From NCBI GenBank assembly GCA_964434345.1, contig CAYSUY010000001.1:8681-72680 (forward strand): a stretch of 64,000 bases of DNA, given 5' to 3'. Each line of letters begins with the position of its first letter. The stretch's first letter is position 1. The notes beneath the pieces were generated by a model. It searched no databases and was not told where the DNA came from. It saw only the letters and a program-made list of their open reading frames with translations. The translations under genes and the position numbers were made by a program. Origin of the DNA: an uncultured Acetobacteraceae bacterium (GTDB lineage: Bacteria > Pseudomonadota > Alphaproteobacteria > CACIAM-22H2). Shown here one piece after another: positions 42,784 through 58,547 of this stretch.

Positions 42784-43825
42784 TCGCCGCGAACGGGGTC
42801 GCAACCGGGATCGCCGGAGGCCGGTCGAGCCAGGCTGGCACGGGAAGACCGCGCGCGCGCAGGAACCCCGGATCGAACAGCTTCGAGGCGTAGCGCGCGC
42901 CGCCATCGCAGAGGATGGTCACGATAGTGTGGCCGGGGCCGAGTGCGCGCGCCAGCGCCATCGCGCCCGCGACGTTGATGCCGGAGGATGCTCCGACGAA
43001 CAGCCCCTCCTCGGCGAGGAGATCGAAGACGATGCGCACGGCCTCGTCGTCCGCGATCCGGAAGGAATGATCGACGCGGAGCCCTTCCAGGTTGCGCGTG
43101 ATGCGGCCCTGACCGATGCCCTCGGTGATCGACGACCCCTCGGATTTCAGGACGCCGGTCGTGTAGTAGCTGTGCAGCGCCGCGCCATGCGGATCGGCAA
43201 GCGCGATCTTCACGCCGGGCTTCAGGCGCCGGAGCCCGATCGCGGTGCCCGCGAGGGTGCCGCCGGATCCGACCGCGCACACGAAGCCATCCACCTTGCC
43301 GCCGGTCTGCCGGAAGATCTCCGGCGCGGTGGTCAGGACATGCGCCTCGCGATTGGCGACGTTGTCGAACTGGTTGGCCCAGAGCGCGCCGGCAGGATCG
43401 ACTTGTCCTATGGCCTCGGCGAGACGCTGCGACACCTTCACGTAGTTGTCCGGATTGGCGAAGGGGACCGCCGGCACGAGCCGCAATTCGGCGCCGATAA
43501 GGCGGAGGAAGTCCTTCTTTTCCTGGCTCTGCGTGTCGGGCATCACGATGACGCTGCGATAGCCGCGTGCATTGGCGACCAGGGCAAGGCCGATTCCCGT
43601 GTTCCCGGCCGTTCCCTCGACGATGACGCCACCGGGCTTGAGAAGGCCCTTTGCCTCTGCGTCCAGGACCATCTGCAGGGCAGGGCGGTCCTTCACCGAG
43701 CCGCCGGGGTTGAGGAACTCGGCCTTGCCGAGGATCTCGCAGCCGGTCTGCGCGCTGGCCCGGCGCAGACGGATCAGGGGCGTGTTGCCGATGGTGCCGG
43801 CGAAGCCATCACGGATCTCGGTCAC
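42773..43825 (-). CDS. cysteine synthase / cystathionine beta-synthase-family PLP enzyme
   Basis: GNTPLIRL, NPGGSVKDR (PLP Lys), GTAGNTGIGLA, AVGSGGTLAG. 350 aa. The 3' end overlaps the convergent kinase gene by 11 nt. Confidence 0.85.
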   Translation of the reverse strand: MTEIRDGFAGTIGNTPLIRLRRASAQTGCEILGKAEFLNPGGSVKDRPALQMVLDAEAKGLLKPGGVIVEGTAGNTGIGLALVANARGYRSVIVMPDTQSQEKKDFLRLIGAELRLVPAVPFANPDNYVKVSQRLAEAIGQVDPAGALWANQFDNVANREAHVLTTAPEIFRQTGGKVDGFVCAVGSGGTLAGTAIGLRRLKPGVKIALADPHGAALHSYYTTGVLKSEGSSITEGIGQGRITRNLEGLRVDHSFRIADDEAVRIVFDLLAEEGLFVGASSGINVAGAMALARALGPGHTIVTILCDGGARYASKLFDPGFLRARGLPVPAWLDRPPAIPVATPFAAITS

Positions 43826-43866
43826 TGACGTTGCTCCTCATGCATCGACGGCGGCTGACAGGGGCG

Positions 43867-44529
43867 TCAGCCCGCCCGGGCATAGCCGAGGCTGACGAGG
43901 CCGATGGCGCGCATGACGGCGGCCTGGGCCGGGTCGACGACCGGAAGGCCAAGGCGGCGCTCGATCTCGGGTCGATAGCCGCCCATGCTGGCGCAGCCGA
44001 GGATCAGCACGTCGGCGCCGTCGCGGTCGCGCAGCTCGGTTCCGACCTCGACGATGCGATCGATCACCCTTGGGCCGTCGAGCAACGCGGTAACGCCGAT
44101 CTCGAGGGGCCGGTCGCCCGCGAGCAGGCTTTCGAGCCCCAACTGGCGAACCGCCCGGATATGGCGCGGGATCGAGCCGCGCTTGATCGCCACGATCCCG
44201 AATTTCCGTCCGAGGCCGATCGCGGCGAGATAGGCGGATTCCCCGATCCCGACCACCGGCTGGCGGACGCGCTCGCGCGCGAGGTGGAGCCCCGGGTCGG
44301 AGAAGCAGCCGATGACATAGGCGTCGGCCGGATGGCTCTCGAAATAGCGCGCGGTCGGCAGGACGACGCTTTCCACATGCTCCTGGGTCTCGATACCGGG
44401 CGGCCCCTCGGCCAGGGTGGCGCAGACCACCTCGGGGCCACCGGGCAGGCGTGTCGGCGCGAGCGCCGCATCCATGGAGGCCGTGACGCTTGCCGAACTG
44501 TTGGGGTTGAGGACCAGGATACGCGACAT
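43867..44529 (-). CDS. Asp/Glu/hydantoin racemase family protein
   Basis: 220 aa. ILVLNPNSS, with two catalytic-type cysteines in IGCFSDPG and LGCASMG. Confidence 0.8.
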   Translation of the reverse strand: MSRILVLNPNSSASVTASMDAALAPTRLPGGPEVVCATLAEGPPGIETQEHVESVVLPTARYFESHPADAYVIGCFSDPGLHLARERVRQPVVGIGESAYLAAIGLGRKFGIVAIKRGSIPRHIRAVRQLGLESLLAGDRPLEIGVTALLDGPRVIDRIVEVGTELRDRDGADVLILGCASMGGYRPEIERRLGLPVVDPAQAAVMRAIGLVSLGYARAG

Positions 44530-44662: not shown

Positions 44663-45511
44663 ATGGATCGGCAGCGTCTTCGGATCGGACAGGCCAGGCT
44701 GACGCGGCGGCGCGCGCTCGCAAGTGCGCTCGCGGGAGCGTTCGCGCCCGCCGCGGCCGCGCAGGTCACAGACCTCCGTGGCTTCGATCCCCTGTGGCGT
44801 GACGCCGAAGCCGCCATCCGCGCCTTCTTCGGCCCCGTGCAGTTCCAGCGCACGGGCATCGCGCTCGACCTGCCCGAGCAGACCGACAGCGGCAGTACGG
44901 TGCCCCTGACGCTGCGGATCGACGCGGCGATGACCGAGGCCGACCATCCCGACGTGGTCCATGTCCTCGCGCACGGCAATCCGACCCCGCACGTGTTCTC
45001 GGCGTGGTTCAGCCCGGCCAATGGTCGCGCCGAACTCTCGACCCGCATTCGGCTCGAGCGGACCCAGGCGGTCACCGCGGTCGTGCGGATGAGCGACGGC
45101 CGGCATCTGCGGGTGGACCGGGAGGTCGGCGTGAGTTTCGGCGCCTGCGCCCAGATCGGCGAAGGATCGAACGACGATGTGATCGCATTCGCGCCGCGCA
45201 CGCGCGTCAGCGTCCCGGCCCGCGCCGGCCGGGACGAAATCGTCCCCGTGCGCACGCTGATCTCGCATCCGATGGAAACCGGGTTGCGGCTGAACGCCGC
45301 CGACGAGTGGATCCGCCAGCGGATCGTGTCGCGCTTCCGCTGTGCGTTCGCCGGTCGCCCGCTGTTCCGGGCCCGGCTCTACCCCGCCGTGGCGAGCAAC
45401 CCGTATTTCCATTTCCATGCCCGGGTCAGGGAAAGCGGGGTCTTCGACTTCGACTGGTACGACACGCTGGACATGACCTTCGCCGACCGCGCCGCCATCG
45501 AGGTCGGATAG
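44663..45511 (+). CDS. fused SoxY-like/SoxZ-like thiol carrier protein, copy 1, twin-arginine signal
   Basis: Start at MDRQRL..LTRRRALASALAGAFAPAAAAQ (44663). SoxY-like half: DLPEQTDSGSTVPL..., ending in the VSFGACAQ cysteine motif. SoxZ-like half: VRTLISHPMETGLRLNA...NPYFHFH. Confidence 0.7.
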   Translation: MDRQRLRIGQARLTRRRALASALAGAFAPAAAAQVTDLRGFDPLWRDAEAAIRAFFGPVQFQRTGIALDLPEQTDSGSTVPLTLRIDAAMTEADHPDVVHVLAHGNPTPHVFSAWFSPANGRAELSTRIRLERTQAVTAVVRMSDGRHLRVDREVGVSFGACAQIGEGSNDDVIAFAPRTRVSVPARAGRDEIVPVRTLISHPMETGLRLNAADEWIRQRIVSRFRCAFAGRPLFRARLYPAVASNPYFHFHARVRESGVFDFDWYDTLDMTFADRAAIEVG

Positions 45512-45640
45512 CCGCGCGGCCGCGCGAGGGGATGGATGTCCGCCGCGGCCTCGCCTATGGTCGGAGCAGGTCACCGGGGCGCGTCAACGCGGCCCCTTGC
45601 GTCGCAACGGGGCTCGCAGCCCCAGTCCGGGGAGGAAAAA

Positions 45641-46102
45641 ATGAACCTGACGCTCAGCGTCAACGGCAAATCGCACCAGGTCGATGTCGAGCCCGAAACG
45701 CCTCTGTTGTGGGTGCTCCGCGACACGATCGGATTGACGGGCACGAAATATGGCTGCGGCATCGCGCAGTGCGGCGCCTGCATGGTCCATATCGACGGGC
45801 AGGCGGTGAAGTCCTGCAACGTCAACGCCGCCGCCGCCGTCGGCAAGCGCATCACGACGATCGAGGGCCTGTCGCCGGACAGCAGCCATCCGGTCCAGAA
45901 GGCCTGGCTGGAGCATACGGTGCCGCAATGCGGCTATTGCCAGTCGGGACAGATCATGTCGGCCGCCGCGCTCCTGCAGCGCACGCCGAATCCGACCGAC
46001 CGCCAGATCGACGACGCGATGTCGGAAAATCTCTGCCGCTGCGGCACCTATCTGCAGATCCGCGAGGCGATCCACGCCGCCGCGAAGCTCGGCCGGTCGT
46101 GA
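45641..46102 (+). CDS. (2Fe-2S)-binding small subunit of a xanthine-oxidase-family Mo hydroxylase (IorA / aldehyde oxidoreductase small subunit type), copy 1
   Basis: The ATG at 45641 follows [28 protein letters not shown] and [21 protein letters not shown] cluster motifs. 153 aa. Confidence 0.9.
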
Positions 46103-46113
46103 GGGAGGCGCGC

Positions 46114-48291
46114 ATGGACAAGATCGATCTTTCCCGTCGGGCCTTCATCCGCACGGCGGTGGCCGCCGGCGGCGGCATGATGCTGGGCTTCAACATTCCG
46201 GCCACGCATGACGCCGCGGCCGCGACGGTCCAGCCTGAGTTGTGGAAGCCGCCGGCTGGCGGCGTCGAGGTCAACGCCTGGCTGACCATCGATGCGGAGG
46301 GCGTGGTCACGATCCGGGTCCCGCATACCGAGATGGGGCAGGGTGGCATGACGTCCGTCGCGCAACTCGTCGCGGAGGAACTCGACGTTCCCTGGGAGAA
46401 GGTCCGCGCGGTGCTTGCCGACGCGAACCGCCACGTGACGCGCGGCAACGAATACAAGGACATGTCGACGGGCGGCTCGAACCTCGTGCGCAACCGTCAT
46501 CCGCACATCATGCAGGCCGGCGCCTCCGCGCGCGAGCGACTGCGCGAGGCGGCGGCGCGCAAATGGGGCGTCGATCGCGCCCAGGTGACGGCGAAGCAGG
46601 GCGTCCTGACGGCCGGTGCCAATCGCGGCACCTATGGCGAGTTCGCGACCGCCGCCGCCCAGATCGCTTTGCCGCAGGAGCCCAAGATCAAGGCCTATGG
46701 CGACTGGTGGCTGCTCGGCAAGGATGTGCCGCGCATGGATGTCGCGCCGAAGGTCAACGGCAGCGCGATCTATCCGATCGACGTGCGCGTGCCGGGCATG
46801 GTCTATGCCGCCGTGCGCGCCTGTCCGGTTCCCGGCGGCAGGCTCAAGAGCTTCGATTTCGCCGCGGTCAAGGCGCGTCCGGGCGTGATCGCCGCGATCG
46901 AGCTCAAGCAGACCAAGGCCAATCTCGGCAACAGCGACATGCGCAGCGCCGTCGCCGTGGTCGCGGACAGCTTCTACCGCGCCAAGGTCGCCCTCGATCT
47001 GATGCCGATCGAATGGGATCTCGGTCCCGGCGCGCAGAACAGCTACGCGGCGATGGACGCGCAGGCCCGCGACCTGATGGACAAGGAGGCCAAGCACGCC
47101 GAGGAGGTCCGCGGCGATCCGCGGCCGCTGCTCGCGTCGCCGGCCGGGAAGGTCGTGACGGGAAGCTATGCGCGCCCCTACGAGACCCACGCGCCGATGA
47201 GCCCGCCGGCCGCGGTGGCGCATGTCACGGCCGAGCGCGTCGATGTCTGGAGCTTCACGCAGAACGTCGCCGCGACGCTGCTTCTGGCCGCCGATCAGGC
47301 CGGACGCAACCCCAAGGATGTCTTCGTCCACGGGACGTTCCAGGGCGGTGCGTTCGGACAGGGCAACGCCGTCGACATCACCCGCCAGGCGGTCGAACTC
47401 TCGAAGCAGCTCGGCAAGCCGGTCAAGGTGATCTGGACGCGCGAGGAGGACACCGCCCAGGCCCGCTCTCGCCCGCCCATCTGGGCGCGGTTCCAGGCCG
47501 TGCTCGGCGCGGACGGCCTGCCGACGGCGATGCTCAGCCGCGCAGTCGGCGAGACCTTCAACCCGGCCTATGCCGATCGCGGGATCGCGAACATGCCCTA
47601 CAACGTGCCGCATTTCCGGTACGAGCGGCATGTCGTGCCGACCAACATTCCGGTCGGTCCGAACCGCGCGCCGGGCAACAACGCCAACGGCTTCACGATC
47701 GAGCAGTACGTCGACGAGCTGGCGCTCGCCGGCGGCTGGGATCCGCTGGAGTGGCGCATCAAGATGACCGAGGGCAACGAGCGCTGGCAGCGGGTGCTGC
47801 TCAAGCTCAAGGAAGTCTCGGGCTTCACCACCAAGCTGCCGCGCGGCCAGGGAATGGGCATCGCGGTGGTCGAATCCCACGGCTCGACCGTGGGTGTCTG
47901 CGCGACCGTCGAGGTCACGCGGCGCGGCCAGCTCTCGGTCGAGAAGATCCTCGTCGTCACCAACAGTGGCTACGTGATCAATCCACGCGCCGCGAACGAA
48001 CAGGTCTATGGCTGTGTCGCGTGGGAGCTGAGCCATACGCTCCAGGGCGGTCTCGATCTGCGCGAGGGCCGTTTCCGCAACACCAATTTCGACGGCTACA
48101 AGCTCACGCGCATGGCCGACATGCCGCCGGTCGAAAGCGTCTACGCGATGTCGCAGGACGGCTGGTGGGGCGGCTTCGGCGAAACGGCCGGGCCGCCGAC
48201 GCCGCCGGCGATCGCCAACGCGATCTTCTTCGCGACCGGCAAGCGTATCCGCTCGACACCGATCCTCCAGCACAATCTCAGCTGGGCCTGA
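46114..48291 (+). CDS. molybdopterin-binding large subunit of a xanthine-oxidase-family hydroxylase (IorB-type), Tat signal, copy 1
   Basis: The ATG at 46114 follows GAGGGAGG. N-terminus MDKIDLSRRAFIRTAVAAGGGMMLGF. 725 aa, alignable by eye to copy 2 (GASARERLR, VKVIWTREE). Confidence 0.9.
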   Translation: MDKIDLSRRAFIRTAVAAGGGMMLGFNIPATHDAAAATVQPELWKPPAGGVEVNAWLTIDAEGVVTIRVPHTEMGQGGMTSVAQLVAEELDVPWEKVRAVLADANRHVTRGNEYKDMSTGGSNLVRNRHPHIMQAGASARERLREAAARKWGVDRAQVTAKQGVLTAGANRGTYGEFATAAAQIALPQEPKIKAYGDWWLLGKDVPRMDVAPKVNGSAIYPIDVRVPGMVYAAVRACPVPGGRLKSFDFAAVKARPGVIAAIELKQTKANLGNSDMRSAVAVVADSFYRAKVALDLMPIEWDLGPGAQNSYAAMDAQARDLMDKEAKHAEEVRGDPRPLLASPAGKVVTGSYARPYETHAPMSPPAAVAHVTAERVDVWSFTQNVAATLLLAADQAGRNPKDVFVHGTFQGGAFGQGNAVDITRQAVELSKQLGKPVKVIWTREEDTAQARSRPPIWARFQAVLGADGLPTAMLSRAVGETFNPAYADRGIANMPYNVPHFRYERHVVPTNIPVGPNRAPGNNANGFTIEQYVDELALAGGWDPLEWRIKMTEGNERWQRVLLKLKEVSGFTTKLPRGQGMGIAVVESHGSTVGVCATVEVTRRGQLSVEKILVVTNSGYVINPRAANEQVYGCVAWELSHTLQGGLDLREGRFRNTNFDGYKLTRMADMPPVESVYAMSQDGWWGGFGETAGPPTPPAIANAIFFATGKRIRSTPILQHNLSWA

Positions 48292-48300
48292 CGTCGTCTC

Positions 48301-48335
48301 GCCACGACCGGCGCGTTCCGCGCGCCGGTCGTGGC
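48301..48335 (+). other. intercistronic GC stem-loop between the Mo subunit and the SoxXA-fusion gene
   Basis: GCCACGACCGGCGCG-ttccg-CGCGCCGGTCGTGGC, a 15-bp perfect stem starting 10 nt after the stop at 48291. No U-tract follows. Confidence 0.45.
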
Positions 48336-48373
48336 CTCCTCCCGCCGCGCCGCCGCACGCCTTGTTCCGCCGC

Positions 48374-49525
48374 ATGATCCGTGTGCTGCTGGTCGTGCTT
48401 TTCTGCTTGAGCGCAGCCGGCCCGGTCCGCGCCGGGAACGCCGAACTCGAACCGCTGACCGCGATGCCCGGCGATCCGGTGCGCGGCCGCGCGATCGTGC
48501 GCGATCCGGGCAAGGCGAGTTGCCTGATCTGCCATGCGATGCCGATCCCCGAGGAGCCCGACCATGGCGGGATCGGTCCACCGCTCGCCGGAATCGGCAA
48601 GCGGACGACACCGGGCGAACTGCGCCGTCGCCTCGTCGATCCGACCGTCCGCGAGCCGGAGACCGTGATGCCCGCCTATCATCGCGTCGACGGTCTCAAT
48701 CGGGTCCTGGAGCGCTATCGGGGACAGCCGATCTACAGCGCGCAGGAGGTCGAGGATGTCGTCGCCTATCTCGCGACGCTGGTGGACGACGCGCCGCTTC
48801 CGGCACCGCCGCCCGTGGGGCCGGAGACCGGCGCGGCGCGGTCCGGCACCTTCTATCTGGGCGATGCCACGCGGCGTCTTCAGGACGATGATTTCCTCAA
48901 TCCCGGCATGTTCGCGGTCGAGCGCGGGGGCGAGGTCTTCCGTCGCGCCGACGGCGAGGGCGGAGTGTCCTGCGCCTCGTGCCATGACGAAGCGGCGATG
49001 CGGGGAGTGGCGACGCGCTACCCGCGCTTCGACGGCGCGCGCGGCGGCCTGATCGACCTGCCCGCCGCCCTCGACGCGATGCGGCGCACGAAGATGCGCG
49101 CGTCCCCGTTGGGCCGGGAGAGCGAGGACATGCTGGCGCTGTCGGCGTTCATCGCGCGCCAGTCCAACGGCCTTTTCAGGTCGGTTCCGGTCGATGGTCC
49201 GGTGCGGCCCCATTTCGAGGCCGGTCGCGCGTTCTTCGAGACCCGCCGTGGTCAACTGAACCTGTCCTGCGCGCACTGCCATGACGCGCTCGCTGGCGCG
49301 AAGCTGCGCGGCGACACGATCAGCCAGGGGCAGATCGACGGTTTTCCGATCCATCGCCTCATGTGGCGTTCCATGGCCTCCACGCACCGCATGTTCGCCT
49401 GGTGCAACAGCGCCCTGCGCGCCGAACCGTTCGAGAGCGGAAGTCCGGAGTATCTGGCACTCGAACTCTACCTGGCCTGGCGCGGGCGTGCGCTGCCGAT
49501 CGCGGTTCCCGGCGTGCGGCGTTGA
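48374..49525 (+). CDS. SoxX-SoxA fusion c-type cytochrome (three CxxCH), Sec signal
   Basis: Start at ATG 48374 (alternative TTG 48362). SoxX-like half: CLICH, MPAYH, EDVVAYLATL. SoxA-like half: NPGMF, CASCH, LSCAHCH, QGQIDGFPIHRLMW, HRMFAWCN..LRAEPF, LELYLAWRG. Confidence 0.75.
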   Translation: MIRVLLVVLFCLSAAGPVRAGNAELEPLTAMPGDPVRGRAIVRDPGKASCLICHAMPIPEEPDHGGIGPPLAGIGKRTTPGELRRRLVDPTVREPETVMPAYHRVDGLNRVLERYRGQPIYSAQEVEDVVAYLATLVDDAPLPAPPPVGPETGAARSGTFYLGDATRRLQDDDFLNPGMFAVERGGEVFRRADGEGGVSCASCHDEAAMRGVATRYPRFDGARGGLIDLPAALDAMRRTKMRASPLGRESEDMLALSAFIARQSNGLFRSVPVDGPVRPHFEAGRAFFETRRGQLNLSCAHCHDALAGAKLRGDTISQGQIDGFPIHRLMWRSMASTHRMFAWCNSALRAEPFESGSPEYLALELYLAWRGRALPIAVPGVRR

Positions 49526-49635
49526 CGCCATTCCGGGACCGGGGAGGCGCGATCGGGGGTTGCTCTCGCCCAGGGCTTTTCGCACCATGGTCGCGCGGCG
49601 CGTGGTGACGCGCGGGGGAACAGGGGTTGGCGCAC

Positions 49636-50931
49636 ATGATTCTTCGGCTTCTCATCGGCCTGGTGGCCGCTCTTGCCGTGGGCGTCGGCGGATTTTTCGG
49701 ATGGGCGGCGCGTCACGGATCGATCGCTCCACTCGCCGCTCCGCCGGCTCCGAAGTCGTTCGACGCGGCGCTCGTCGAGCGGGGCAAGAGCCTCGCGGCG
49801 CTCGGCTATTGCGTCGTCTGCCATACGCGGTCCGACGGACCGGCGCTGGCCGGCGGGCGGGGGCTGCCGACACCATTCGGAACGGTCTACGCCACCAACA
49901 TCACCCCCGATCCCGAGACGGGGATCGGGCTCTGGTCCGAGGCGGCGTTCCGTCGCGCGATGCACGACGGCATCGGCCGCGACGGCCGGCATCTCTATCC
50001 GGTCTTTCCCTATGATCATTTCACGAAGGTCACCGACGAGGACGTGCGGGCGATCTACGCCTATCTCATGACGCAGAAGCCCGTGCGCTATACGCCGCCC
50101 GCCAACGAACTCGGCTTTCCGTTCGGTGTCCGTCAGTTGATGGCCGGTTGGAATCTCCTGTTTTTCGAGAGCGGCCGCTTCGTCCCTGATCCGAAGCGCG
50201 ACGAGGCCTGGAACCGCGGCGCCTATCTTGCCGAGGGCCTCGGCCATTGCGGATCCTGCCACACGCCGCGCAACGCCCTGGGCGGTCTCATCAAGGACCG
50301 GAAATTCGCCGGCGCGACGATCGAGGGCTGGCATGGCACGGCGCTCGACGCCTCGTCGCCGTCACCGATCCCATGGACCGCCGACGCGCTGCTCAACTAC
50401 CTCCTCGACGGGCGCGAGGCGCAGCATGGCATCGCGGCGGGACCGATGACGCCGGTCGTCGATCTGCTTGCCGACCAGGAGGAAAGCGATATCGCCGCGC
50501 TGGCAGCCTATATCCTGTCGTTCCAGACCGGGCGGCCGGACAACTCCGCCGACGCGAAGGCCTTCGCGGAGTCGCGCCAACTCGTCAATACGCCCGGCGC
50601 GGCCGTACCCGACATGGATCCCGCGCTGCGGCCCGGCTATGCGATCTTCATGCAGTCCTGCGCGAACTGCCATCGCAAGGGCGAACGCTTCACGCCGCTC
50701 GCGCTGACCTCGACCGTGAACGGGCCCGATCCCCGGAACGTCATCCAGATCGTGCAGCACGGCCTGCGGCCGCCCCGCGCGTCGCGTGGCTTCACCATGC
50801 CGGCCTTCGGGTGGATGTCGGACAAGGAGATGGCCGACCTCGTGCGCTTCCTGCGCGCGCAGTTCAGCCGCAATGCGCCATGGTCCGATGTCGAGGGCGC
50901 GATCCGCGAGGTACGCAGCCAGCGCCACTGA
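49636..50931 (+). CDS. membrane-anchored tri-haem cytochrome c (dehydrogenase cytochrome subunit type)
   Basis: Start at ATG 49636 (ORF opens at TTG 49627). N-terminal TM MILRLLIGLVAALAVGVGGFFGW. Three CxxCH motifs (CVVCH, CGSCH, CANCH). Confidence 0.85.
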   Translation: MILRLLIGLVAALAVGVGGFFGWAARHGSIAPLAAPPAPKSFDAALVERGKSLAALGYCVVCHTRSDGPALAGGRGLPTPFGTVYATNITPDPETGIGLWSEAAFRRAMHDGIGRDGRHLYPVFPYDHFTKVTDEDVRAIYAYLMTQKPVRYTPPANELGFPFGVRQLMAGWNLLFFESGRFVPDPKRDEAWNRGAYLAEGLGHCGSCHTPRNALGGLIKDRKFAGATIEGWHGTALDASSPSPIPWTADALLNYLLDGREAQHGIAAGPMTPVVDLLADQEESDIAALAAYILSFQTGRPDNSADAKAFAESRQLVNTPGAAVPDMDPALRPGYAIFMQSCANCHRKGERFTPLALTSTVNGPDPRNVIQIVQHGLRPPRASRGFTMPAFGWMSDKEMADLVRFLRAQFSRNAPWSDVEGAIREVRSQRH

Positions 50932-50946
50932 CCGCGGCGCCGCGGA

Positions 50947-51627
50947 TCACATCCGCGGCACCGCGCGGCGGCATTGCGCGAGGCGCAGCGCGCTGCGTTG
51001 GGTCGTGCACGAGGTATTGCTCTCGTCCGACATCAGCGCCACGTCGGCGCGCTCGAACAATTCGGTGGCCCTGGCCAGATCCTGCGCCACGCCCGTGCCG
51101 TTCGCGTACATCGTGCCGAGACGGAACAGCGCCTGCGGATGGTCCTGCGCCGCCGCCCGCGTGAACCACCGCGCCGCAGCGGCTGCATCGGGTCGTAACC
51201 CGTCGCGGCCTTCGGCGAGGAGCGTGCCGAGGTCGAACTGGGCGAGCATGTCGCCCGCCTCGGCCGCTGCCCTGTACCAGTCGGCCGCTGCCGCTGCATC
51301 GCGCTCCACACCGTCGCCCTCGGCGAGCATCTGGGCGAGGTTGAACGCCGCGCGTGCATAGCCTTGCGCAGCCGCGAGCCGGTAGAATCGCGCTGCGGCG
51401 CCGCGATCGCGCGTCACGCCCCGCCCCTGGTCGAGCAGGATGGCGGCGTTGAACTGGGCGACGATGTCCCCGCGCTCGGCCCGCTCCCGCCAGACCGCGA
51501 AGGCGGCTGCATGATCGCCGCGCCGATACGCGTCTTCGGCCGCATCGGACGCGCTGGCGCCGGTCGCGGCGAGGGCCGCGAAGAGAAGGCCCGCAAAGAG
51601 CCGTGACTGGAGACGTCGTGCCCGCAT
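50947..51627 (-). CDS. Sel1-like (TPR-type) repeat protein with signal peptide
   Basis: Start at MRARRLQSRLFAGLLFAALAATGASA (51627). Repeated ~36-aa units: A.FN.A.ML..G.GV.RD...A..WYR.AAE.G. Confidence 0.7.
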   Translation of the reverse strand: MRARRLQSRLFAGLLFAALAATGASASDAAEDAYRRGDHAAAFAVWRERAERGDIVAQFNAAILLDQGRGVTRDRGAAARFYRLAAAQGYARAAFNLAQMLAEGDGVERDAAAAADWYRAAAEAGDMLAQFDLGTLLAEGRDGLRPDAAAAARWFTRAAAQDHPQALFRLGTMYANGTGVAQDLARATELFERADVALMSDESNTSCTTQRSALRLAQCRRAVPRM

Positions 51628-51659
51628 GGTGCCGCTCGCCCCTGCACGGCCGATGCCCG

Positions 51660-52475
51660 TCAGGCGAGGGCGATGGCCGCGCTGTTGGTGTAGACGGAGC
51701 CGTCGGTGTCGAGCCAGCGGAACTCGTAGATCCCGCCGCCACGCACCCGGTCGTGGAATGCAAAATATGGGTTGGTCGCGATCGCCGGGTAGGGCCGCGC
51801 GCGGAAGACCGTTCGGCCCTCGAAGCGGCACTCGAACTCCTCGATGATGCGCAGCGGGATCCAGGTATTGAAGGCATTGAGGCGCAAGCCCGTTTCCATC
51901 GGATGCGAGATCAGCGTGCGTATCGCGATGACATCGCCGAGGCGCGCGGTCGACGGAACCATCACCCGCGAAACCGGCTTGAAATCCCTGATCTCGGCGT
52001 CGGATCCGGTGCCAACATTGGCGCAGGCGCCGTAATTGACGGTCAGCGCCTGATCCGCGCGCCAGACCTCGCCGTTCTGCATCTGGGCGACCGCAGTGAC
52101 CGTCTGGGCGCTTTCCAGACGGATGCGGGTCGAGAACTCCGCACGCCCGCAATCCGGCGCGAACCATGCCGACACGACATTGGGCCTCGGGTTGCCGTCC
52201 ACCATGACATGGACGGCGCGTGGCACCTCGTCTTGGGCCGTGACCGTCATCGGGACTGAACTGCCGGTATCGGAATGGGAGGGCAGGTCGAGGCGGACGC
52301 GCCCGCTGCGCGCCGTGGCGGGTCCGACCAGGCGCTGGATCGCGTACTCGACGTCGCGCGGCAGGGCGATGCCCGCGCGCGCGCCGAAAAGCGCGAGCGC
52401 CGCTCCGCCCAGCGCTGCTCCGCTCAGCGCCGCGCGTCGTCCCCGGCCGTGTCGCGCTCCCGCCGTCATCGACAT
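51660..52475 (-). CDS. fused SoxY-like/SoxZ-like thiol carrier protein, copy 2, twin-arginine signal
   Basis: Start at MSMTAGARHGRGRRAALSGAALGG (52475). Alignable to copy 1, sharing the identical RTLISHPMETGLRLNA, STRIRLE and NPYF.FH. Cysteine motif VNYGACAN. Confidence 0.7.
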   Translation of the reverse strand: MSMTAGARHGRGRRAALSGAALGGAALALFGARAGIALPRDVEYAIQRLVGPATARSGRVRLDLPSHSDTGSSVPMTVTAQDEVPRAVHVMVDGNPRPNVVSAWFAPDCGRAEFSTRIRLESAQTVTAVAQMQNGEVWRADQALTVNYGACANVGTGSDAEIRDFKPVSRVMVPSTARLGDVIAIRTLISHPMETGLRLNAFNTWIPLRIIEEFECRFEGRTVFRARPYPAIATNPYFAFHDRVRGGGIYEFRWLDTDGSVYTNSAAIALA

Positions 52476-52521
52476 GCGCGTAGGCAGGACGGCCGGTTCG
52501 TGGCCGTCCCGCCGATCGCGC

Positions 52522-54834
52522 TCAGCCCATGTACTTCGTGAAGGGCTTGCGGGTGATCCATTTGCCGGTGGCCCGGAAATAGGCATGCACGAAGGCCGGC
52601 GGCGGCGGACCCATCGGCGGTTCACCCGCCTCCGAGAACCGCTCATGGCCGGAATTGCCGCCGAAATGGACGTGGATCTCCTGCGGCAGCAACGGATCGG
52701 CCTGCCGCATCGCGCGGTAGCCGTCGAGATTGCCTTCGACGATCGCGCCGTTCGAGACGTTGAGTTCCTCGTGCAGCGACGAACTCAGCGCCATGATCAC
52801 GCCGCCCTCCATCTGCGCGCGAACCGCATCCGGATTGATGACGCTGCCGAGGTCGAAGGCGACATCGACGCGCGGGATCGCCACGTTGCCGCGACGCGAC
52901 ACCTCGACCGTCACGATCGTCGCCACGGTCGAACCGCTGAACGGCACCGGCGCGCCGTCCTGGGTCGTCGCCATCGCCCAGTTGCCGATGGCGACGCCCT
53001 GCGCCGTGCCACGCGGAAGGCTCTGGCCCCAGTTCGCCTTCTGCGCGACCTCGTCGAGCGTCTTGATCCAGCCCTTGTCGGGGAAATTCGCCAGGAGCCG
53101 GCGGCGGTACTCGACCGCGTCGATCTTGGCGGTTTCCGCGCAGTTGTTGATGAAGGTCTCCAGGAAGAAGCAATTGCTCACGAACACCGGGCCACGGAAC
53201 GGACCGGTCATGATGTTGGTGGCGAAAGGTTTCGTGCGCCCCCGGAAATTCGGGATCGCGAACTGGTACGGCGTATCCGTCAGGTTGCGTCCGATGGGGC
53301 GCGACGCCGCCTGGTTGATGTCGACCGCCTTCGGCATGCCGTCGTCGCCGAGCGTCGCCGTGATCTTCGCGGCGGCGATGTCGCGATAGCGGCCCTGACG
53401 CGTCGTCTCCTCACGCGTCCAGATCACCTTGACCGGCTTGCCGGCCATCTTCTTCGCGATCGCGACTACCGTGCGGACGTCGTCGCCGTAGATACGGCGA
53501 CCGCAACCGACCCCGACATACGTCGCATGGACATGCACCTTCTCGGGATGCAGGCCCGTTTCGTCGGCTGCGACGTACATCGCCTGCTGCGCGTGCTGGG
53601 TGGAGATCCAGACGTCGCAGCGATCGGCGGTCACGAGCGCCGTGCCGTTGAGCGGCTCCATCAGGAAATGGTCCTGATAGGGAGTCATGAACTCCATCTC
53701 GACGCGCCGTCCCGTCTTGAGCGCCTCGTCGACATCGCCCTTGGCACGCAGGACGTTGCCGCGGCTGGTGTCCTTTGCCGCGTCGCCCAGCGCGGCGTAG
53801 ATCGACTGGGTCGTCGTCCATTTGGCCCCGTCGCCGGCGTCCCAGTCCACGGGCAGCATGTCCAGCGCGACCTTGGCCTGCCAGAAATGATCGGCGATCA
53901 CCGCCACGGCAGCCTGCGGACCGTTGGTGGTCGCCGACATGCCCATCGGCGCGGTGACGCGGTCGGGAAGGCCGCGCCCGCCCTCGGCGGGATCGACCAC
54001 CACGACTGCGCGAACGCCCGGCATCGCCTTGATCGCATCGAAATTGACGCTCTTCAGCTTGCCGCCATGGGCGGGTACGTGACGCACCGTCGCGTACACC
54101 ATGCCCGGCACCTGGACGTCGAGCCCGTAGATCGCGCTGCCGTCGAGGATGTGCTGGAGGTTGATGCGCTTGCGCGACGTCTTGCCGAGGAATGTCCACT
54201 CGGCGCGCGGCTTGAGGTCGGGCTCCTTGTCGAGTTTCACCGCGGCGGCCTCGGCGGCCACCTCGCCATAGGTGAGCCGGCGGTTGCTCGCGGCGTGGAC
54301 GAGGGTGCTGTTCTCGGCCTTCACCTGATCGACGGGAACGCCCCAGCGCGTGGCCGCCGCGACGCGCAGACGCTCGCGGGCGCTGGCGCCGATCTGGAGC
54401 AGTTGCTCCATCATCTCCTTGCCGGTCGAACGGCCCGAGAAATAGGCGAGGCCACCGGTCTTCGAGTAGAGATTGTTCTCCCTGAGGTTCCGGTTCGGCG
54501 GCATGTACTCGCCGCGCACGAGGTTCCAGTCGCAACCGAGTTCCTCGGTGACGATCATCGCCATGCCGGTGTGAACGCCGTTGCCCAACTCGCTCTTGAC
54601 GGTGCGGATGGTCACGGTGTTGTCCGGAGCGATCGAGACGACGCCGGTGAATTCGGCGCCCGTGCTCTGCTGGCCCGGATTGCGCGAGCCCAGCGCTGCG
54701 GCGGCCTGTTCGGCGGGCAGGATCCCGACCGTCAGTCCACCGGCCATGGCGGCGGCGCTGACCAGGAAAGTGCGGCGCCCGAGTTCGACGGTCGATCCGA
54801 CGGAGGGAGCGAAATCGGTCTGATGCTTTGTCAT
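52522..54834 (-). CDS. molybdopterin-binding large subunit of a xanthine-oxidase-family hydroxylase (IorB-type), Tat signal, copy 2
   Basis: Start at MTKHQTDF..LGRRTFLVSAAAMAGG (54834). 770 aa, occupying the 3' part of track ORF 52522..55230. Confidence 0.9.
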   Translation of the reverse strand: MTKHQTDFAPSVGSTVELGRRTFLVSAAAMAGGLTVGILPAEQAAAALGSRNPGQQSTGAEFTGVVSIAPDNTVTIRTVKSELGNGVHTGMAMIVTEELGCDWNLVRGEYMPPNRNLRENNLYSKTGGLAYFSGRSTGKEMMEQLLQIGASARERLRVAAATRWGVPVDQVKAENSTLVHAASNRRLTYGEVAAEAAAVKLDKEPDLKPRAEWTFLGKTSRKRINLQHILDGSAIYGLDVQVPGMVYATVRHVPAHGGKLKSVNFDAIKAMPGVRAVVVVDPAEGGRGLPDRVTAPMGMSATTNGPQAAVAVIADHFWQAKVALDMLPVDWDAGDGAKWTTTQSIYAALGDAAKDTSRGNVLRAKGDVDEALKTGRRVEMEFMTPYQDHFLMEPLNGTALVTADRCDVWISTQHAQQAMYVAADETGLHPEKVHVHATYVGVGCGRRIYGDDVRTVVAIAKKMAGKPVKVIWTREETTRQGRYRDIAAAKITATLGDDGMPKAVDINQAASRPIGRNLTDTPYQFAIPNFRGRTKPFATNIMTGPFRGPVFVSNCFFLETFINNCAETAKIDAVEYRRRLLANFPDKGWIKTLDEVAQKANWGQSLPRGTAQGVAIGNWAMATTQDGAPVPFSGSTVATIVTVEVSRRGNVAIPRVDVAFDLGSVINPDAVRAQMEGGVIMALSSSLHEELNVSNGAIVEGNLDGYRAMRQADPLLPQEIHVHFGGNSGHERFSEAGEPPMGPPPPAFVHAYFRATGKWITRKPFTKYMG

Positions 54835-54845
54835 CGCGACCTCCC

Positions 54846-55298
54846 TCAGACGAGTTCCGCGGCGCGGCGGACCGCGGCGCGGATCTTCAGGTAGGTGCCG
54901 CAGCGGCACAGATTGTTCATCGCTTGGTCGATATCGGCGTCCGACGGCTTGGAGTTGCGGGCGAGCAGGCCGACAGCGGCCATGATCTGACCCGACTGGC
55001 AGAAGCCGCATTGCGGGACGTCGAGTTCTGCCCAGGCGCGCTGCACCGCATGCGTCCGGTCGGGAGACAGGCCCTCGATGGTGACGATCGACTTGCCGAC
55101 GGCCTGGGCCGCCGGGATGTTGCACGAGCGCGCGGCCTGACCGTCGATGGTGACGGTGCAGGCGCCGCATTGGTTGATGCCGCAGCCATATTTCGTGCCG
55201 GTCATCGCCAGATGGTCCCGGAGCACCCACAGCAGCGGCGTTTGCGGATCGGCGTCGACCGAAACGGTCTTGCCGTTCACCTTGAGATCGAATGCCAT
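54846..55298 (-). CDS. (2Fe-2S)-binding small subunit, copy 2
   Basis: 150 aa. [45 protein letters not shown] upstream. Confidence 0.9.
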
Positions 55299-55520: not shown

Positions 55521-56648
55521 TTACCCCAGCGTGAAGGCCTCGTGTACGGCCGACTGGACGGCGCCACCGAGCACCGCTCCGCCGCCGGCGACATAGACCC
55601 AGTCACCGATCGTCACCGCCGCGACGGCGTGCCGCGGCGTGATCATCGGCGCATGGCTCTGCCAGGCGTCGGTCGCCGGGTCATAGCTTTCCATCTGTCC
55701 AAAGACCTTGGCGTCGAGCGTCCTGCCGCGTTCGATGATTCCGCCCTCGCCGCCCATGCAGAAGAAGCGGCCGCGATACACGACCATGCCGTGGCCGGAG
55801 CGGGCGGTGGGCAGCGGCGCGCGCTCTTCCCATGTGTCCCTCTGGGGGAGGTAAACGTGATGGAGATCGGTGTTGTACTGGAAGGTGTTGAAGCGTCCGC
55901 CCACGACATGGACGAGACCCGCATGCGCCACGCAGCCGACATGGTCGCGCGCGCCGGGCAGCGGGCGGCGCAGTTCCCACGCGTCCGCGACGGGGTCATA
56001 GACCTCGTGCCAGCCGATGCTCGCGCGCTCCGGCGCCGGATCGGTGGCCCCGCCGATCAGATGCACCTTGCCGTCGAGGATCACGGCCGCCGCCGCGCCG
56101 CGCGGGCGCGGCAGCGGCGCGATCTCGCGCCAGCGATCCTCCTTGACCTCGTAGGCGAAGGCCTTGTCGTCGCAGCGCCGGTTCTGCTCGATGAAGCCCC
56201 CCATCGCGTAGACGCGCCCGGCATCCGCCGCGACCGCGACATGGTTGGCACCGCGCGGCAGCGGCGCGGCGTCGAGCCAGGCGTTCGCGACGGGGTCGTA
56301 GACCGTGTGATAGGCGCGGTTCACCCGGCCTTCGCCATAGCCGCCCACGACATGCATCCGTCCGTCCCAGACCGTGGCCCAGGCCATCTCGCTGCGCGGG
56401 ATCGGCATGTCGGCGCGGGACACCCATCGGCCCGCGGGTCCGGCGGGGGCCGGGCTTGCCGACACGCGCTGCGCCTCCTGCTCGGGCGTCAGGTGATGCG
56501 GCGCGCCACCCTGCATGAGGTTGTGGAAGCGATGCGGCGACGGCGCGGCCGGTCGCAGGGCGGGGCCGTGATTGGCGTGCTGGGCCCGCGCCAGGGACGG
56601 GGCCAGCAGCGTGGCGCCCGCGGCGCCGAGCAGGAAGCGGCGATTCAT
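55521..56648 (-). CDS. Kelch-repeat beta-propeller protein with Tat signal and His-rich N-terminal segment
   Basis: N-terminus MNRRFLLGAAGATLLAPSLARA, followed by 6 His within about 35 aa. Repeated motifs: GR.Y..GG... / Y DP..D.W. Confidence 0.8.
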   Translation of the reverse strand: MNRRFLLGAAGATLLAPSLARAQHANHGPALRPAAPSPHRFHNLMQGGAPHHLTPEQEAQRVSASPAPAGPAGRWVSRADMPIPRSEMAWATVWDGRMHVVGGYGEGRVNRAYHTVYDPVANAWLDAAPLPRGANHVAVAADAGRVYAMGGFIEQNRRCDDKAFAYEVKEDRWREIAPLPRPRGAAAAVILDGKVHLIGGATDPAPERASIGWHEVYDPVADAWELRRPLPGARDHVGCVAHAGLVHVVGGRFNTFQYNTDLHHVYLPQRDTWEERAPLPTARSGHGMVVYRGRFFCMGGEGGIIERGRTLDAKVFGQMESYDPATDAWQSHAPMITPRHAVAAVTIGDWVYVAGGGAVLGGAVQSAVHEAFTLG

Positions 56649-56718: not shown

Positions 56719-57666
56719 TCATCGATATTCGATGCGCGGATCGATATAGGCGTAGAGGACGTCGACCAGCAGGTTCATCAGCACGTAGATCACCAGGATG
56801 AACAGGATGCAGCCCTGGATCAGCGGATAGTCGCGCGATCCGATGGCCTGGATCAGCAGTCGCCCGAGGCCCGGATAGGTGAACACGGCCTCGGTGACGA
56901 CCGTGCCGCCGATGAAATTGGCCAGCATCAGTCCGACGATCGTGACGAAGGGCAGCAATGCGTTGCGCATCACGTGCCGCCCGACGACGTCGCGCTCCGG
57001 CAGTCCCTTCGACCGCGCCGTGCGGACGTAGTCGGCCTTGAGTTCGCTCAGCAGCGAGGCGCGCAGGAAGCGCGCGAAGATGCCCGACACGTACGTGCCG
57101 AGGGTCAGGGCCGGCATTGCCGTGTTGCGCAGCGCCTGAAGCGGCGAATCGAAGAAGGACACATAGGCCGAGGCCGACGGCAGCCAGCGCAGTTCGACCG
57201 AGAAGAGTAGGATGAGCAGGATCCCGAGCCAGAAGGTGGGCACGCCCAGCGCCAGCGCACTCCATCCGCTCAGCGCGCGGTCGATCCAGGAACCCGGCCA
57301 GATCGCGCTGGCGATCGCCACGGGGATCCCGAGCAGCAGGCCCACGAGGGTCGCGCAGAAGCCAAGCTGGAGGGTCGCCGGGACGCGCTGCATGATGAGA
57401 TGCAGCACGGGTTCGCGCGCATGCAGCGAGGCCCCGAGATCGCCGGTCATGGCGCTGGTCAGCCAGGCCCAGTACTGGACCAGGACCGGCCGGTCGAGGC
57501 CGAGGCGCTGCGTAACCTCGCGGATCTGCTCGGGATTGGCGTTCTCGCCGACGATGCTCGCGACCGGTCCGCCGGGCACGGCATAGATCATCGCCCAGAT
57601 CCCGAGGGATGCGAGCAGCAGCACCGGCAGCAATTGCAGCAGCCGGCGGACGATGTAGCCGGTCAT
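56719..57666 (-). CDS. peptide/nickel-type ABC transporter permease (DppB/OppB-like)
   Basis: 315 aa. N-terminus MTGYIVRRLLQLLPVLL, and YVRTARSKGLPERDVVGRHVMRNALLP. Confidence 0.9.
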   Translation of the reverse strand: MTGYIVRRLLQLLPVLLLASLGIWAMIYAVPGGPVASIVGENANPEQIREVTQRLGLDRPVLVQYWAWLTSAMTGDLGASLHAREPVLHLIMQRVPATLQLGFCATLVGLLLGIPVAIASAIWPGSWIDRALSGWSALALGVPTFWLGILLILLFSVELRWLPSASAYVSFFDSPLQALRNTAMPALTLGTYVSGIFARFLRASLLSELKADYVRTARSKGLPERDVVGRHVMRNALLPFVTIVGLMLANFIGGTVVTEAVFTYPGLGRLLIQAIGSRDYPLIQGCILFILVIYVLMNLLVDVLYAYIDPRIEYR

Positions 57667-58547
57667 CTTCCGCTCCCTTCGGAGGACGCGCCCGCGACCT
57701 CGCGGCGATCCTCGAGAACGGTCGCGAGGGTCCGGCCAAGCGTATCGAGCGACAGGATGGTCAAGGTGAGCGCGATCCCCGGCAGCACGGCGTAGGTCGG
57801 TGCCTCGTAGAGGAAGGACTTCCCGGTACGCAGAAGATCGCCCCAGCTCGGCGTGGGCGGCGGAATGCCGACGCCGAGGAAGGACAGCGCGGCCTCGAGC
57901 AGGATGGCGACCGAGGAGAGCACGACGACCTGGACCAGGATCGGGCTCCAGGAATTGGGCAGCACGGTCCTGAACATCGTGTAGGCCGAAGATCCACCGA
58001 GCGCCTCGACGGCAAGCACGAAATCGCGCTGGCGCAGCGACAGGACCTGGGCACGGGTGATGCGTGCGAAGCTGGGCACGCCGGTGATCCCCACGGCGAC
58101 CAGGGCGGCGAGCTGGCTGCGCCCGAGCACAGCGATCATCGCCATGGCGAAGAGGATCCCCGGAAGCGCCAGCAGCACGTCGATGATCCGCATCAGCACC
58201 GCGTCGCGCCAGCCGCCGAAGAAACCGGCGACGAGGCCGATCGGGATGCCGATGCAGGCGGCGATGGCGACCGCGCCCGCGGCCGTGATCAGGGATGTGC
58301 GCGCGCCGTAGATGACGCGGGCCAGCAGATCGCGTCCGAGTTCGTCGGCGCCGAACCAGTAGCGCGCCGAGGGCGGCTCGAGGCTGGCGCTGACATCCTG
58401 CAGAAGCGGATCGATCGGCAGGACCCAGGGCGCGAGGAAGGCGAGCAGCAGGGTGAGGAGCAGAAACGATCCGCTCAGCAACGCGCCAGGATGGGAGAAC
58501 AGCCGCTTCGCGGTTTCGATGCGGCGCTGCGTACGGCGTGCGGTCAT
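57663..58547 (-). CDS. peptide/nickel-type ABC transporter permease (DppC/OppC-like)
   Basis: Start at Met at 58547, overlapping the ATPase stop (ATGA). WFGADELGRDLLARVIYGAR, RDFVLAVEALGGS. Confidence 0.9.
   Translation of the reverse strand: MTARRTQRRIETAKRLFSHPGALLSGSFLLLTLLLAFLAPWVLPIDPLLQDVSASLEPPSARYWFGADELGRDLLARVIYGARTSLITAAGAVAIAACIGIPIGLVAGFFGGWRDAVLMRIIDVLLALPGILFAMAMIAVLGRSQLAALVAVGITGVPSFARITRAQVLSLRQRDFVLAVEALGGSSAYTMFRTVLPNSWSPILVQVVVLSSVAILLEAALSFLGVGIPPPTPSWGDLLRTGKSFLYEAPTYAVLPGIALTLTILSLDTLGRTLATVLEDRREVAGASSEGSGR

Follow-up and report, generated by a model that had tools for sequence, protein, structure and literature searches.

The canonical Sox system, for instance that of Paracoccus pantotrophus, relies on a periplasmic carrier made of SoxY and SoxZ, whose cysteine is borne by a flexible arm. 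We analyzed a stretch of 64,000 nucleotides of DNA (hereafter the window) from an uncultured Acetobacteraceae bacterium that contains two gene modules, A and B. In each of them, a carrier of this type, with SoxY and SoxZ fused in one chain, is paired with an IorAB-like molybdenum (Mo) hydroxylase of the xanthine-oxidase family (Table 1). We give slightly less than even odds to the proposal that the window holds, in two copies, a periplasmic module for Sox-like sulfur oxidation that needs neither SoxB nor SoxCD. It is further possible, with a probability of roughly 0.4, that these modules represent a widespread SoxB/SoxCD-independent pathway in which the Mo hydroxylase oxygenates a persulfide on the cysteine arm of a SoxY paralogue.

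Like canonical clusters, the loci described here possess a SoxXA cytochrome that passes the curated models, a frequent linkage to FccAB (SoxEF), and a molybdoenzyme within the cluster. In contrast, the canonical arm is a C-terminal GGCGG whereas the present loci encode an internal GAC or a C-terminal AACxE. Canonical clusters also contain SoxB, and their molybdoenzyme, SoxCD, belongs to the sulfite-oxidase family, whereas the enzyme found here combines a xanthine-oxidase-family Mo subunit with two [2Fe-2S] clusters. Canonical and Mo-linked loci are mutually exclusive within 10 kb. At the level of the locus, the system is Sox-like and yet lacks three features that define Sox: the GGCGG arm, SoxB, and SoxCD.

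Other described families share parts of this arrangement. The NCBIfam family TIGR04487 ('SoxY-related AACIE arm protein'), for which we found no published function, has members above its cut-off (in locus L070 of our survey and on Methylobacterium and Neorhizobium plasmids) that are likewise partnered with an IorAB-like enzyme. These proteins stand alone and end in A-A-C-x-E, whereas those of the window are fused to SoxZ and carry an internal G-A-C-A followed by a linker; the two arm motifs are related and not identical. On the enzyme side, AldFGH of acetic acid bacteria and other enzymes of the IorAB/PaoABC type also present a molybdenum cofactor (Moco) subunit exported by the twin-arginine translocation (Tat) pathway, a hitch-hiking subunit with two [2Fe-2S] clusters, and a tri-haem cytochrome c. 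They equally conserve the catalytic Glu and have no flavin adenine dinucleotide subunit. The tri-haem cytochrome of AldFGH has its counterpart in module A and none in the operons of clade C (see below). This relationship is remote, however, and the enzymes of the window are obligatorily linked to a carrier, often together with SoxXA/FccAB. Finally, the members of TIGR04557 (PP_2677 in the ped cluster of Pseudomonas putida) are fused SoxY-SoxZ proteins that also accompany a periplasmic dehydrogenase; SoxYZ-like fusions beside pyrroloquinoline quinone (PQQ) dehydrogenases are the nearest published precedent. That partner uses PQQ whereas the enzymes of the window use Mo-pterin, and the window carriers fall below the cut-off of the family. 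With most subscription journals outside the coverage of our literature search, no paper was found that links SoxY/SoxZ-type carriers with IorAB or xanthine-oxidase-family enzymes; one recurring match, PMC3623810, merely lists Tat substrates of Shewanella.

Profiles and structure both assign the carriers of the window to SoxY and SoxZ rather than to unrelated families. The AlphaFold model of carrier A, with a predicted local distance difference test (pLDDT) score of 79, consists of two beta-sandwiches that superpose on SoxZ (2oxh_A) and SoxY (2ox5_Y) with a template modeling score of 0.87, and the corresponding halves are 41% (SoxZ) and 32% (SoxY) identical to the Paracoccus SoxYZ crystal structures. 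The arm cysteine of carrier A, Cys162, is invariant in 18 homologues. Residues 161-164 form the only internal segment with a pLDDT below 50, and the fact that the model does not place this arm is consistent with the flexibility expected of it. Both carriers fall short of the cut-off in every curated SoxY-type model: carriers A and B score 112 and 108 bits on TIGR04557 (cut-off of 140), 96 and 99 bits on TIGR04487 (cut-off of 172), and 78 and 74 bits on TIGR04488 (cut-off of 125). The best-scoring curated models are TIGR04557 and, for the SoxY half, TIGR04487. An initial annotation of the window had mentioned SoxYZ-like fusions beside quinoprotein dehydrogenases; such fusions are known, whereas the carriers of the window, below both cut-offs, are instead placed nearest to TIGR04487 and are fused relatives of this curated and functionally orphan AACIE-arm family. 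A second invariant cysteine (Cys227, in the RFxC motif of the SoxZ half) was considered as a resolving cysteine and rejected since it is also found in canonical Rhodobacterales SoxZ and is therefore unspecific.

We then scanned genomes with an alignment of the carriers, using one genome per species, and each of the 77 resulting loci was typed by tblastn. The reference proteins used for typing were verified against NCBIfam (the SoxB query scores 806 bits on TIGR04486). Locus L034, in which just a fragment of a carrier is present, was excluded, and the 76 remaining loci were classified according to their arm. Class a comprises fused carriers with a GAC arm (variants GACAQ, GACADD, GACAxV, and GACE) and class b comprises stand-alone SoxY paralogues ending in AACIE, AACVES, or GACLED, each with a separate SoxZ. 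The ~30 canonical loci of class c encode a SoxY ending in GGCGG* along with SoxZ, SoxA, SoxB, SoxC, SoxD, and SoxV, and the five loci of class d are Halomonas-type fusions with an SGCL arm that adjoin fccAB and tsuA. An IorAB-like pair made of a [2Fe-2S] and a molybdopterin subunit (fer2+moco) was identified in 36 of the 41 loci of classes a and b, i.e., those with a [GA]AC arm. In the remaining five, the contig ends at most ~0.8 kb from the carrier or exactly where the pair would be expected (compare L038 with L039). The pair was found in none of the 35 loci of classes c and d (Fisher p = 1e-16, uncorrected for phylogeny). Conversely, tblastn detected no soxB, soxC, or soxD within 10 kb in any locus of classes a and b, whereas the canonical loci have them; the only match of the SoxD query in linked loci was a weak one to a cytochrome c of L047, ~7 kb away (34% identity over 106 residues).

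The pairing of SoxYZ-like with IorAB-like genes is enriched, and the functional coupling of carrier and Mo hydroxylase, which the initial annotation had derived from the two modules of the window, is strongly supported. Carrier and enzyme genes lie side by side in many species and in four deep Mo-subunit lineages; this arrangement tracks the [GA]AC arm, is complementary to SoxB/SoxCD, and disappears in the nearest relatives of the Mo enzyme, which are carrier-less. Chance, or hitch-hiking at a single locus, was rejected because the pairing recurs in these four lineages and across numerous alpha- and betaproteobacterial orders. We also rejected the simple possibility that these genes merely act for a canonical sox locus: such loci encode a separate SoxY (GGCGG), SoxZ, SoxA, and SoxX, and in the loci compared the Mo-linked set forms a distinct paralogous group that is ~37-42% identical to the canonical proteins. 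Matches in Methylosinus trichosporium OB3b, Sinorhizobium fredii, and an Indioceanicola plasmid were canonical or Fcc-only loci and not of the Mo type.

All-against-all clustering of the open reading frames (ORFs) of linked loci identified SoxX, SoxA, FccAB, the tri-haem cytochrome, and Sel1 as the only conserved additional genes; no conserved hydrolase or maturation factor was found, and no xdhC/paoD-like gene was seen among the conserved neighbors. These neighbors likewise included no PQQ dehydrogenase, and neither rhodanese nor SoxH-like relay genes were conserved nearby. A homologue of the tri-haem cytochrome adjoins the module in 17 of the 36 linked loci, and Sel1 homologues are present in 10 of them, mostly beside soxA. 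Flavocytochrome c sulfide dehydrogenase is absent from the window and is a frequent member of the system in other loci. The carrier-fer2-moco arrangement was observed in all three contexts that we inspected around carrier homologues, namely a Joint Genome Institute metagenome contig (4.5 Mb), Roseitranquillus sediminis, and Alsobacter, with flavocytochrome c sulfide dehydrogenase, SoxX, SoxA, a tri-haem cytochrome, Sel1, or rhodanese nearby. Alsobacter possesses both modules in the same convergent orientation as the window, and a freshwater Rhodospirillales metagenome-assembled genome (MAG; L005) presents the same two-module layout with 84-99% protein identity to the window, whose source is thus closely related to the organism behind this MAG. 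Each of the paralogous enzymes has a private carrier in the window, L005, L007, and Alsobacter. Cultured strains that carry the system are Alsobacter ponti SYSU M60028, Roseitranquillus sediminis MCCB 386, Devosia enhydra, Methylobacterium sp. NMS14P, and Neorhizobium galegae VafX2.

Two further observations emerged from the scan. The fused SoxYZ proteins with an S-G-C-L arm (L042, L048, L049, L051, and L068; Halomonas, Marinospirillum, and Thiopseudomonas) are located after fccAB and a TsuA/YeeE-like transporter, without Mo enzyme and without soxB, and constitute another fused-carrier system. The MAG labeled Limisphaerales (L027) has its genes in the order found in the Gemmobacter loci L022 and L028, and its proteins match those of the window with nearly the same identities as theirs, which suggests mis-binning or that the locus was recently transferred into a bin of Verrucomicrobiota.

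In its unfused form, the system is abundant in soil metagenomes and occurs in a fixed operon. The SoxY paralogue of L070 passes the TIGR04487 model (182.6 bits) and its neighbors pass the SoxZ and SoxA models. Using five AACIE-type proteins, we scanned metagenomes and obtained at least 600 matching stretches, mostly from soil, of which 80 loci were examined. The operon common to these 80 listed loci is fer2-moco-(fccA-fccB)-soxX-soxY'(AAC[LVI]E...)-soxZ'-soxA', with fccB directly upstream of soxX in 48 of them. A Mo subunit was found in 14 of the 15 AACIE-type loci whose upstream sequence extends over 4.6 kb or more, whereas tblastn detected SoxB, SoxC, or SoxD in none of the 80. ORF clustering of the AACIE-type loci revealed no further conserved gene and no tri-haem cytochrome. 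Exactly this eight-gene operon is annotated in RefSeq on the Methylobacterium plasmid, and the Neorhizobium galegae plasmid presents the same operon, with the Mo gene unlisted in an incomplete gene table. L160 (soxX at 6684) is the only AACIE locus with more than 4.6 kb of upstream sequence that has neither a Mo subunit nor fccB before soxX-soxY'-soxZ'. Some soil AACIE-type operons contain an additional IorB-like gene or pair, in tandem or downstream of soxA' (L106, 2-4356; L117, 9697-11678; L159, 8026-10379).

To place the Mo enzymes, we built a neighbor-joining tree of 158 large subunits, which was midpoint-rooted and has no support values. The topology was ((A linked, U unlinked), A' linked), (B linked, C linked), such that four lineages (A, A', B, and C) are each carrier-linked, with ~36% identity between A and B or C. 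The large subunits of modules A and B belong to the carrier-linked clades A and B, respectively. Six context look-ups around the module A subunit showed that its matches at 67% and 65% identity have a carrier, whereas those at 62, 61, 60, and 60% are fer2+moco pairs without a carrier, Sox, or Fcc gene, which sit among amidohydrolase, TonB-receptor, and similar genes. Around the module B subunit, the 55% match (Devosia enhydra) is a minimal fer2-moco-carrier unit and the 52% and 49% matches have no carrier. Both enzymes of the window are thus members of discrete carrier-linked subfamilies within an IorB-like family of far greater extent. Tat leaders were likewise found on the unlinked sister enzymes, which indicates that a periplasmic location alone does not require a carrier.

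For the module A large subunit, the nearest solved structure is 8gy3_C (E = 2e-53 over the full length), which represents the large subunit of a membrane aldehyde dehydrogenase from Gluconobacter. The catalytic Glu is retained in both modules: GFGET of module A aligns with GLGEP of 8gy3_C, and AGEPP of module B occupies the same column. We found no residue in the large-subunit alignments that is common to all linked clades and absent from the unlinked clade. A diagnostic active-site signature of the linked subunits was therefore rejected. Linked and unlinked subunits do differ (Met to Gln in TEMGQG, Asp to Ala, and two insertions close to the GGGFG loop), with the derived state in the unlinked clade. 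Two loci (L029, 5823-8478, and L041, 5829-8487) present a second fer2+moco pair that is 57% identical to module A, belongs to the carrier-less clade U, and sits divergently beside a cytochrome-carrier-fer2-moco unit; one carrier may serve two enzymes in these loci.

Since SoxY with an altered arm is always found with the Mo enzyme and never with a nearby SoxB or SoxCD, and since sulfide dehydrogenase and SoxXA paralogues are further frequent companions of the carrier, the most economical reading is that the Mo hydroxylase processes carrier-bound sulfur within a Sox-like pathway. In such a pathway, the SoxY-SoxZ fusion would hold sulfur on the cysteine of its internal flexible GAC arm. The SoxXA paralogue would load the arm with sulfane sulfur by oxidative coupling; flavocytochrome c sulfide dehydrogenase might also do so in many other genomes, and a spontaneous reaction with polysulfide is possible. 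In hydroxylases of the xanthine-oxidase family, Mo-OH attacks an X-H center and Mo=S accepts the hydride, and a protonated persulfide and its oxidized tautomers offer S-H bonds. We infer that the arm docks physically with the Mo + 2x[2Fe-2S] enzyme, which would oxygenate the bound persulfide in two-electron hydroxylase-type steps with oxygen drawn from water: Mo-OH would attack the sulfur and the S-H hydride would pass to Mo=S. After two rounds, the resulting Cys-S-SO2- could hydrolyze to the free carrier and sulfite, as in the persulfide dioxygenase reaction, in which case no SoxB would be needed; a third round of oxidation would yield S-sulfocysteine. Electrons would pass from the [2Fe-2S] clusters to the membrane-anchored tri-haem cytochrome c (type A) and on to the respiratory chain, or to other c-type cytochromes in type C modules.

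Several points weigh against this pathway. We know of no xanthine-oxidase-family enzyme that oxidizes a sulfur atom or a protein-tethered substrate, and no active-site residue restricted to the linked clades was found in the large-subunit alignments. Moreover, clade A is 60% identical to carrier-less enzymes encoded among amidohydrolase and TonB-receptor genes, fccAB is absent from the window itself, and the route of product release is a conjecture. The main difficulty is posed by minimal fer2-moco-carrier modules, with or without the cytochrome, that have no SoxXA or FccAB within 8-10 kb (Devosia enhydra and L023-L031): the loading step lacks an explanation there.

Alternatively, the same pathway could act on a free substrate. 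The Mo enzyme would then oxidize a small sulfur compound, such as sulfite (as its H-SO3- tautomer) or polysulfide, that is released or consumed by SoxXA', SoxY'Z', or FccAB, and the carrier would be a partner in the pathway and not the substrate of the enzyme. Sulfur-oxidation genes do dominate the operon, which contains no SoxB, SorAB, or SoxCD to handle sulfite or sulfonate, and the Mo subunits resemble ordinary small-molecule hydroxylases, with the Glu intact and no signature of the linked clades. We nevertheless regard this alternative as unlikely: the minimal conserved unit is a carrier with fer2 and moco and no other sulfur enzyme, the arm motif changes exactly where the Mo enzyme replaces SoxB/SoxCD, and each paralogous enzyme has kept a private carrier, all of which suggests direct recognition between carrier and enzyme.

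The initial annotation had proposed two mechanisms, the oxidation of a substrate bound to the carrier, with the hydroxylase in place of SoxCD, and the re-sulfuration of the labile Mo=S by a carrier persulfide. Under the latter, the real substrate of the enzyme would be organic and the carrier would maintain the cofactor, as might be expected from the minimal fer2-moco-carrier modules without any other sulfur gene nearby, from the absence of an xdhC/paoD-like gene among the conserved neighbors, and from the 60% identity of clade A to enzymes in contexts of organic catabolism. However, six of the eight genes of the commonest operon are sulfur-oxidation genes (FccAB, SoxX, SoxY', SoxZ', and SoxA') that would all serve a single cofactor, and Tat-exported sister clades manage without a carrier; for these reasons carrier-bound oxidation fits the computational evidence better. 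No candidate gene for an organic substrate is conserved either, and one shared sulfur donor would suffice for two paralogues, yet each has its own carrier. Overall, a role in cofactor maintenance seems quite improbable. Even less probable, in our view, is that an organic electrophile, for instance an aldehyde in thiohemiacetal form, is bound by the carrier cysteine and that the enzyme, as a relative of the membrane aldehyde dehydrogenase, oxidizes the adduct, in parallel to the SoxYZ-like proteins found beside PQQ alcohol dehydrogenases. The similarity to the membrane-bound aldehyde dehydrogenase of Gluconobacter, the existence of fused SoxYZ-like carriers beside periplasmic PQQ dehydrogenases, and the 108-112 bits of the carriers on TIGR04557 all point in this direction. 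In contrast, these scores remain below the cut-off, no PQQ dehydrogenase is conserved nearby, the recurrent partners SoxX, SoxA, and FccAB are enzymes of inorganic sulfur, and the gene context consists of sulfur genes without alcohol or aldehyde genes.

The association between carrier and Mo enzyme is very clean and widespread, and it implies an unfamiliar chemistry for a well-studied enzyme family. If the oxidation of carrier-bound sulfur is true, this enzyme would be the first of the xanthine-oxidase family shown to attack sulfur and to accept a protein-bound substrate, and the family would become the third of molybdoenzymes in dissimilatory sulfur oxidation. Xanthine-oxidase-type chemistry would thereby extend from carbon to sulfur and from small molecules to protein-tethered substrates. 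In addition, the pathway would provide the orphan 'AACIE-arm SoxY' family with a function and explain how sulfide could be handled by bacteria with SoxXA/SoxYZ-like genes and no SoxB/SoxCD nearby. Considering that at least 600 stretches, mostly from soil, match the unfused operon, marker surveys that count soxB or soxCD would miss the system. Were cofactor maintenance true instead, a periplasmic system for Mo=S repair would itself be new. The question is directly testable given that cultured strains carry the system.

Pfam and NCBIfam profile searches with curated cut-offs were used to annotate the proteins of the window (Table 1). The nine genes delineated by the initial annotation are intact ORFs, and the profiles agree with its domain calls (SoxY, SoxZ, SoxX, SoxA, Mo-binding, 2Fe-2S, cytochrome c, and Sel1). 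The strings that it had read as shared between paired proteins, including GASARERLR, are visible in the pairwise alignments, and the absence of soxB and soxCD that it had noted holds over the whole 64 kb, where tblastn detected no homologue of soxB, soxC, soxD, fccA/B, or rhodanese. MoCoBD_1 and MoCoBD_2 exceed the Pfam cut-offs in both large subunits, with a sub-threshold match to the hammerhead domain, and Fer2 and Fer2_2 exceed them in both small subunits. Between modules A and B, the carriers are 50% identical (E = 2e-82), the large subunits 36% (E = 4e-124), and the small subunits 66% (E = 3e-75). In each module, the carrier and the large subunit bear a twin-arginine leader and the small subunit has none, which is the usual hitch-hiker arrangement.

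Table 1. Coordinates of the genes and arm motifs of modules A and B, and of the Kelch-repeat gene beside module B, in the window.
Feature	Coordinates	Strand	Basis
Carrier A, Tat-signal SoxY-like + SoxZ-like fusion, 282 aa	44663..45511	+	Pfam SoxY 1e-27, SoxZ 4e-21
Carrier A arm motif G-A-C-A (Cys162)	45140..45151	+	Translation; within the chain, corresponds to the C-terminal GGCGG swinging arm of SoxY
Module A small subunit, two [2Fe-2S] clusters, IorA-like, without signal peptide	45641..46102	+	Fer2, Fer2_2
Module A large subunit, Tat-signal, molybdopterin-binding, xanthine-oxidase family, IorB-like, 725 aa	46114..48291	+	MoCoBD_1/2
SoxX-SoxA fusion cytochrome, 383 aa, three haem c sites	48374..49525	+	Passes TIGR04484, TIGR04485
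Tri-haem cytochrome c, N-terminal hydrophobic anchor	49627..50931	+	Cytochrom_C, Cytochrome_CBB3 domains
Secreted Sel1-repeat protein, final gene of the module B operon	50947..51627	-	Sel1 x4, E 3e-29
Carrier B, second Tat-signal SoxY-SoxZ fusion, 271 aa	51660..52475	-	Pfam SoxY 4e-23, SoxZ 1.5e-22
Carrier B arm motif G-A-C-A (Cys151)	52020..52031	-	Translation; aligns with carrier A Cys162
Module B large subunit, Tat-signal molybdopterin-binding protein, 770 aa	52522..54834	-	MoCoBD_1/2
Module B small [2Fe-2S] subunit	54846..55298	-	Fer2, Fer2_2
Tat-signal Kelch-repeat beta-propeller upstream of module B	55521..56648	-	Kelch repeats (Pfam)

The SoxX-SoxA fusion scores 179 bits on the SoxA model (TIGR04484, cut-off of 110) and 67 bits on the SoxX model (TIGR04485, cut-off of 61). 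It contains CxxCH motifs at residues 50, 200, and 299 and an additional Cys344, which would be the residue expected as the SoxA haem ligand. SoxX and SoxA form one polypeptide in the window and in its close relatives L005, L006, and L011, whereas the majority of the other Mo-linked loci encode them individually (e.g., L001 and L007). The tri-haem cytochrome c follows module A, whereas module B has none of its own. Its CxxCH motifs are found at residues 62, 208, and 345, the ATG at 49636 is its probable start, and it is likely the electron-accepting subunit of the Mo enzyme.

The Kelch-repeat gene, which the initial annotation had left unmentioned, shares its strand with the module B small subunit and precedes it by 222 bp. 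No conserved counterpart adjoins the other modules (a single further match, in L032, is 33% identical and ~7 kb away), and its membership in the system is doubtful. Further along, the region is flanked on the minus strand (56719-60604) by a dipeptide/oligopeptide-type ATP-binding cassette (ABC) transporter, comprising permeases and a fused double ATPase, that appears unrelated to the modules. Upstream of carrier A, the interval 39035-44529 encodes an ABC_sub_bind-type periplasmic protein and a HAMP/HisKA/HATPase/receiver hybrid kinase, both of which are possible regulators. The opposite strand of this interval carries a cysteine-synthase-like gene dependent on pyridoxal phosphate and an Asp/Glu/hydantoin racemase gene.

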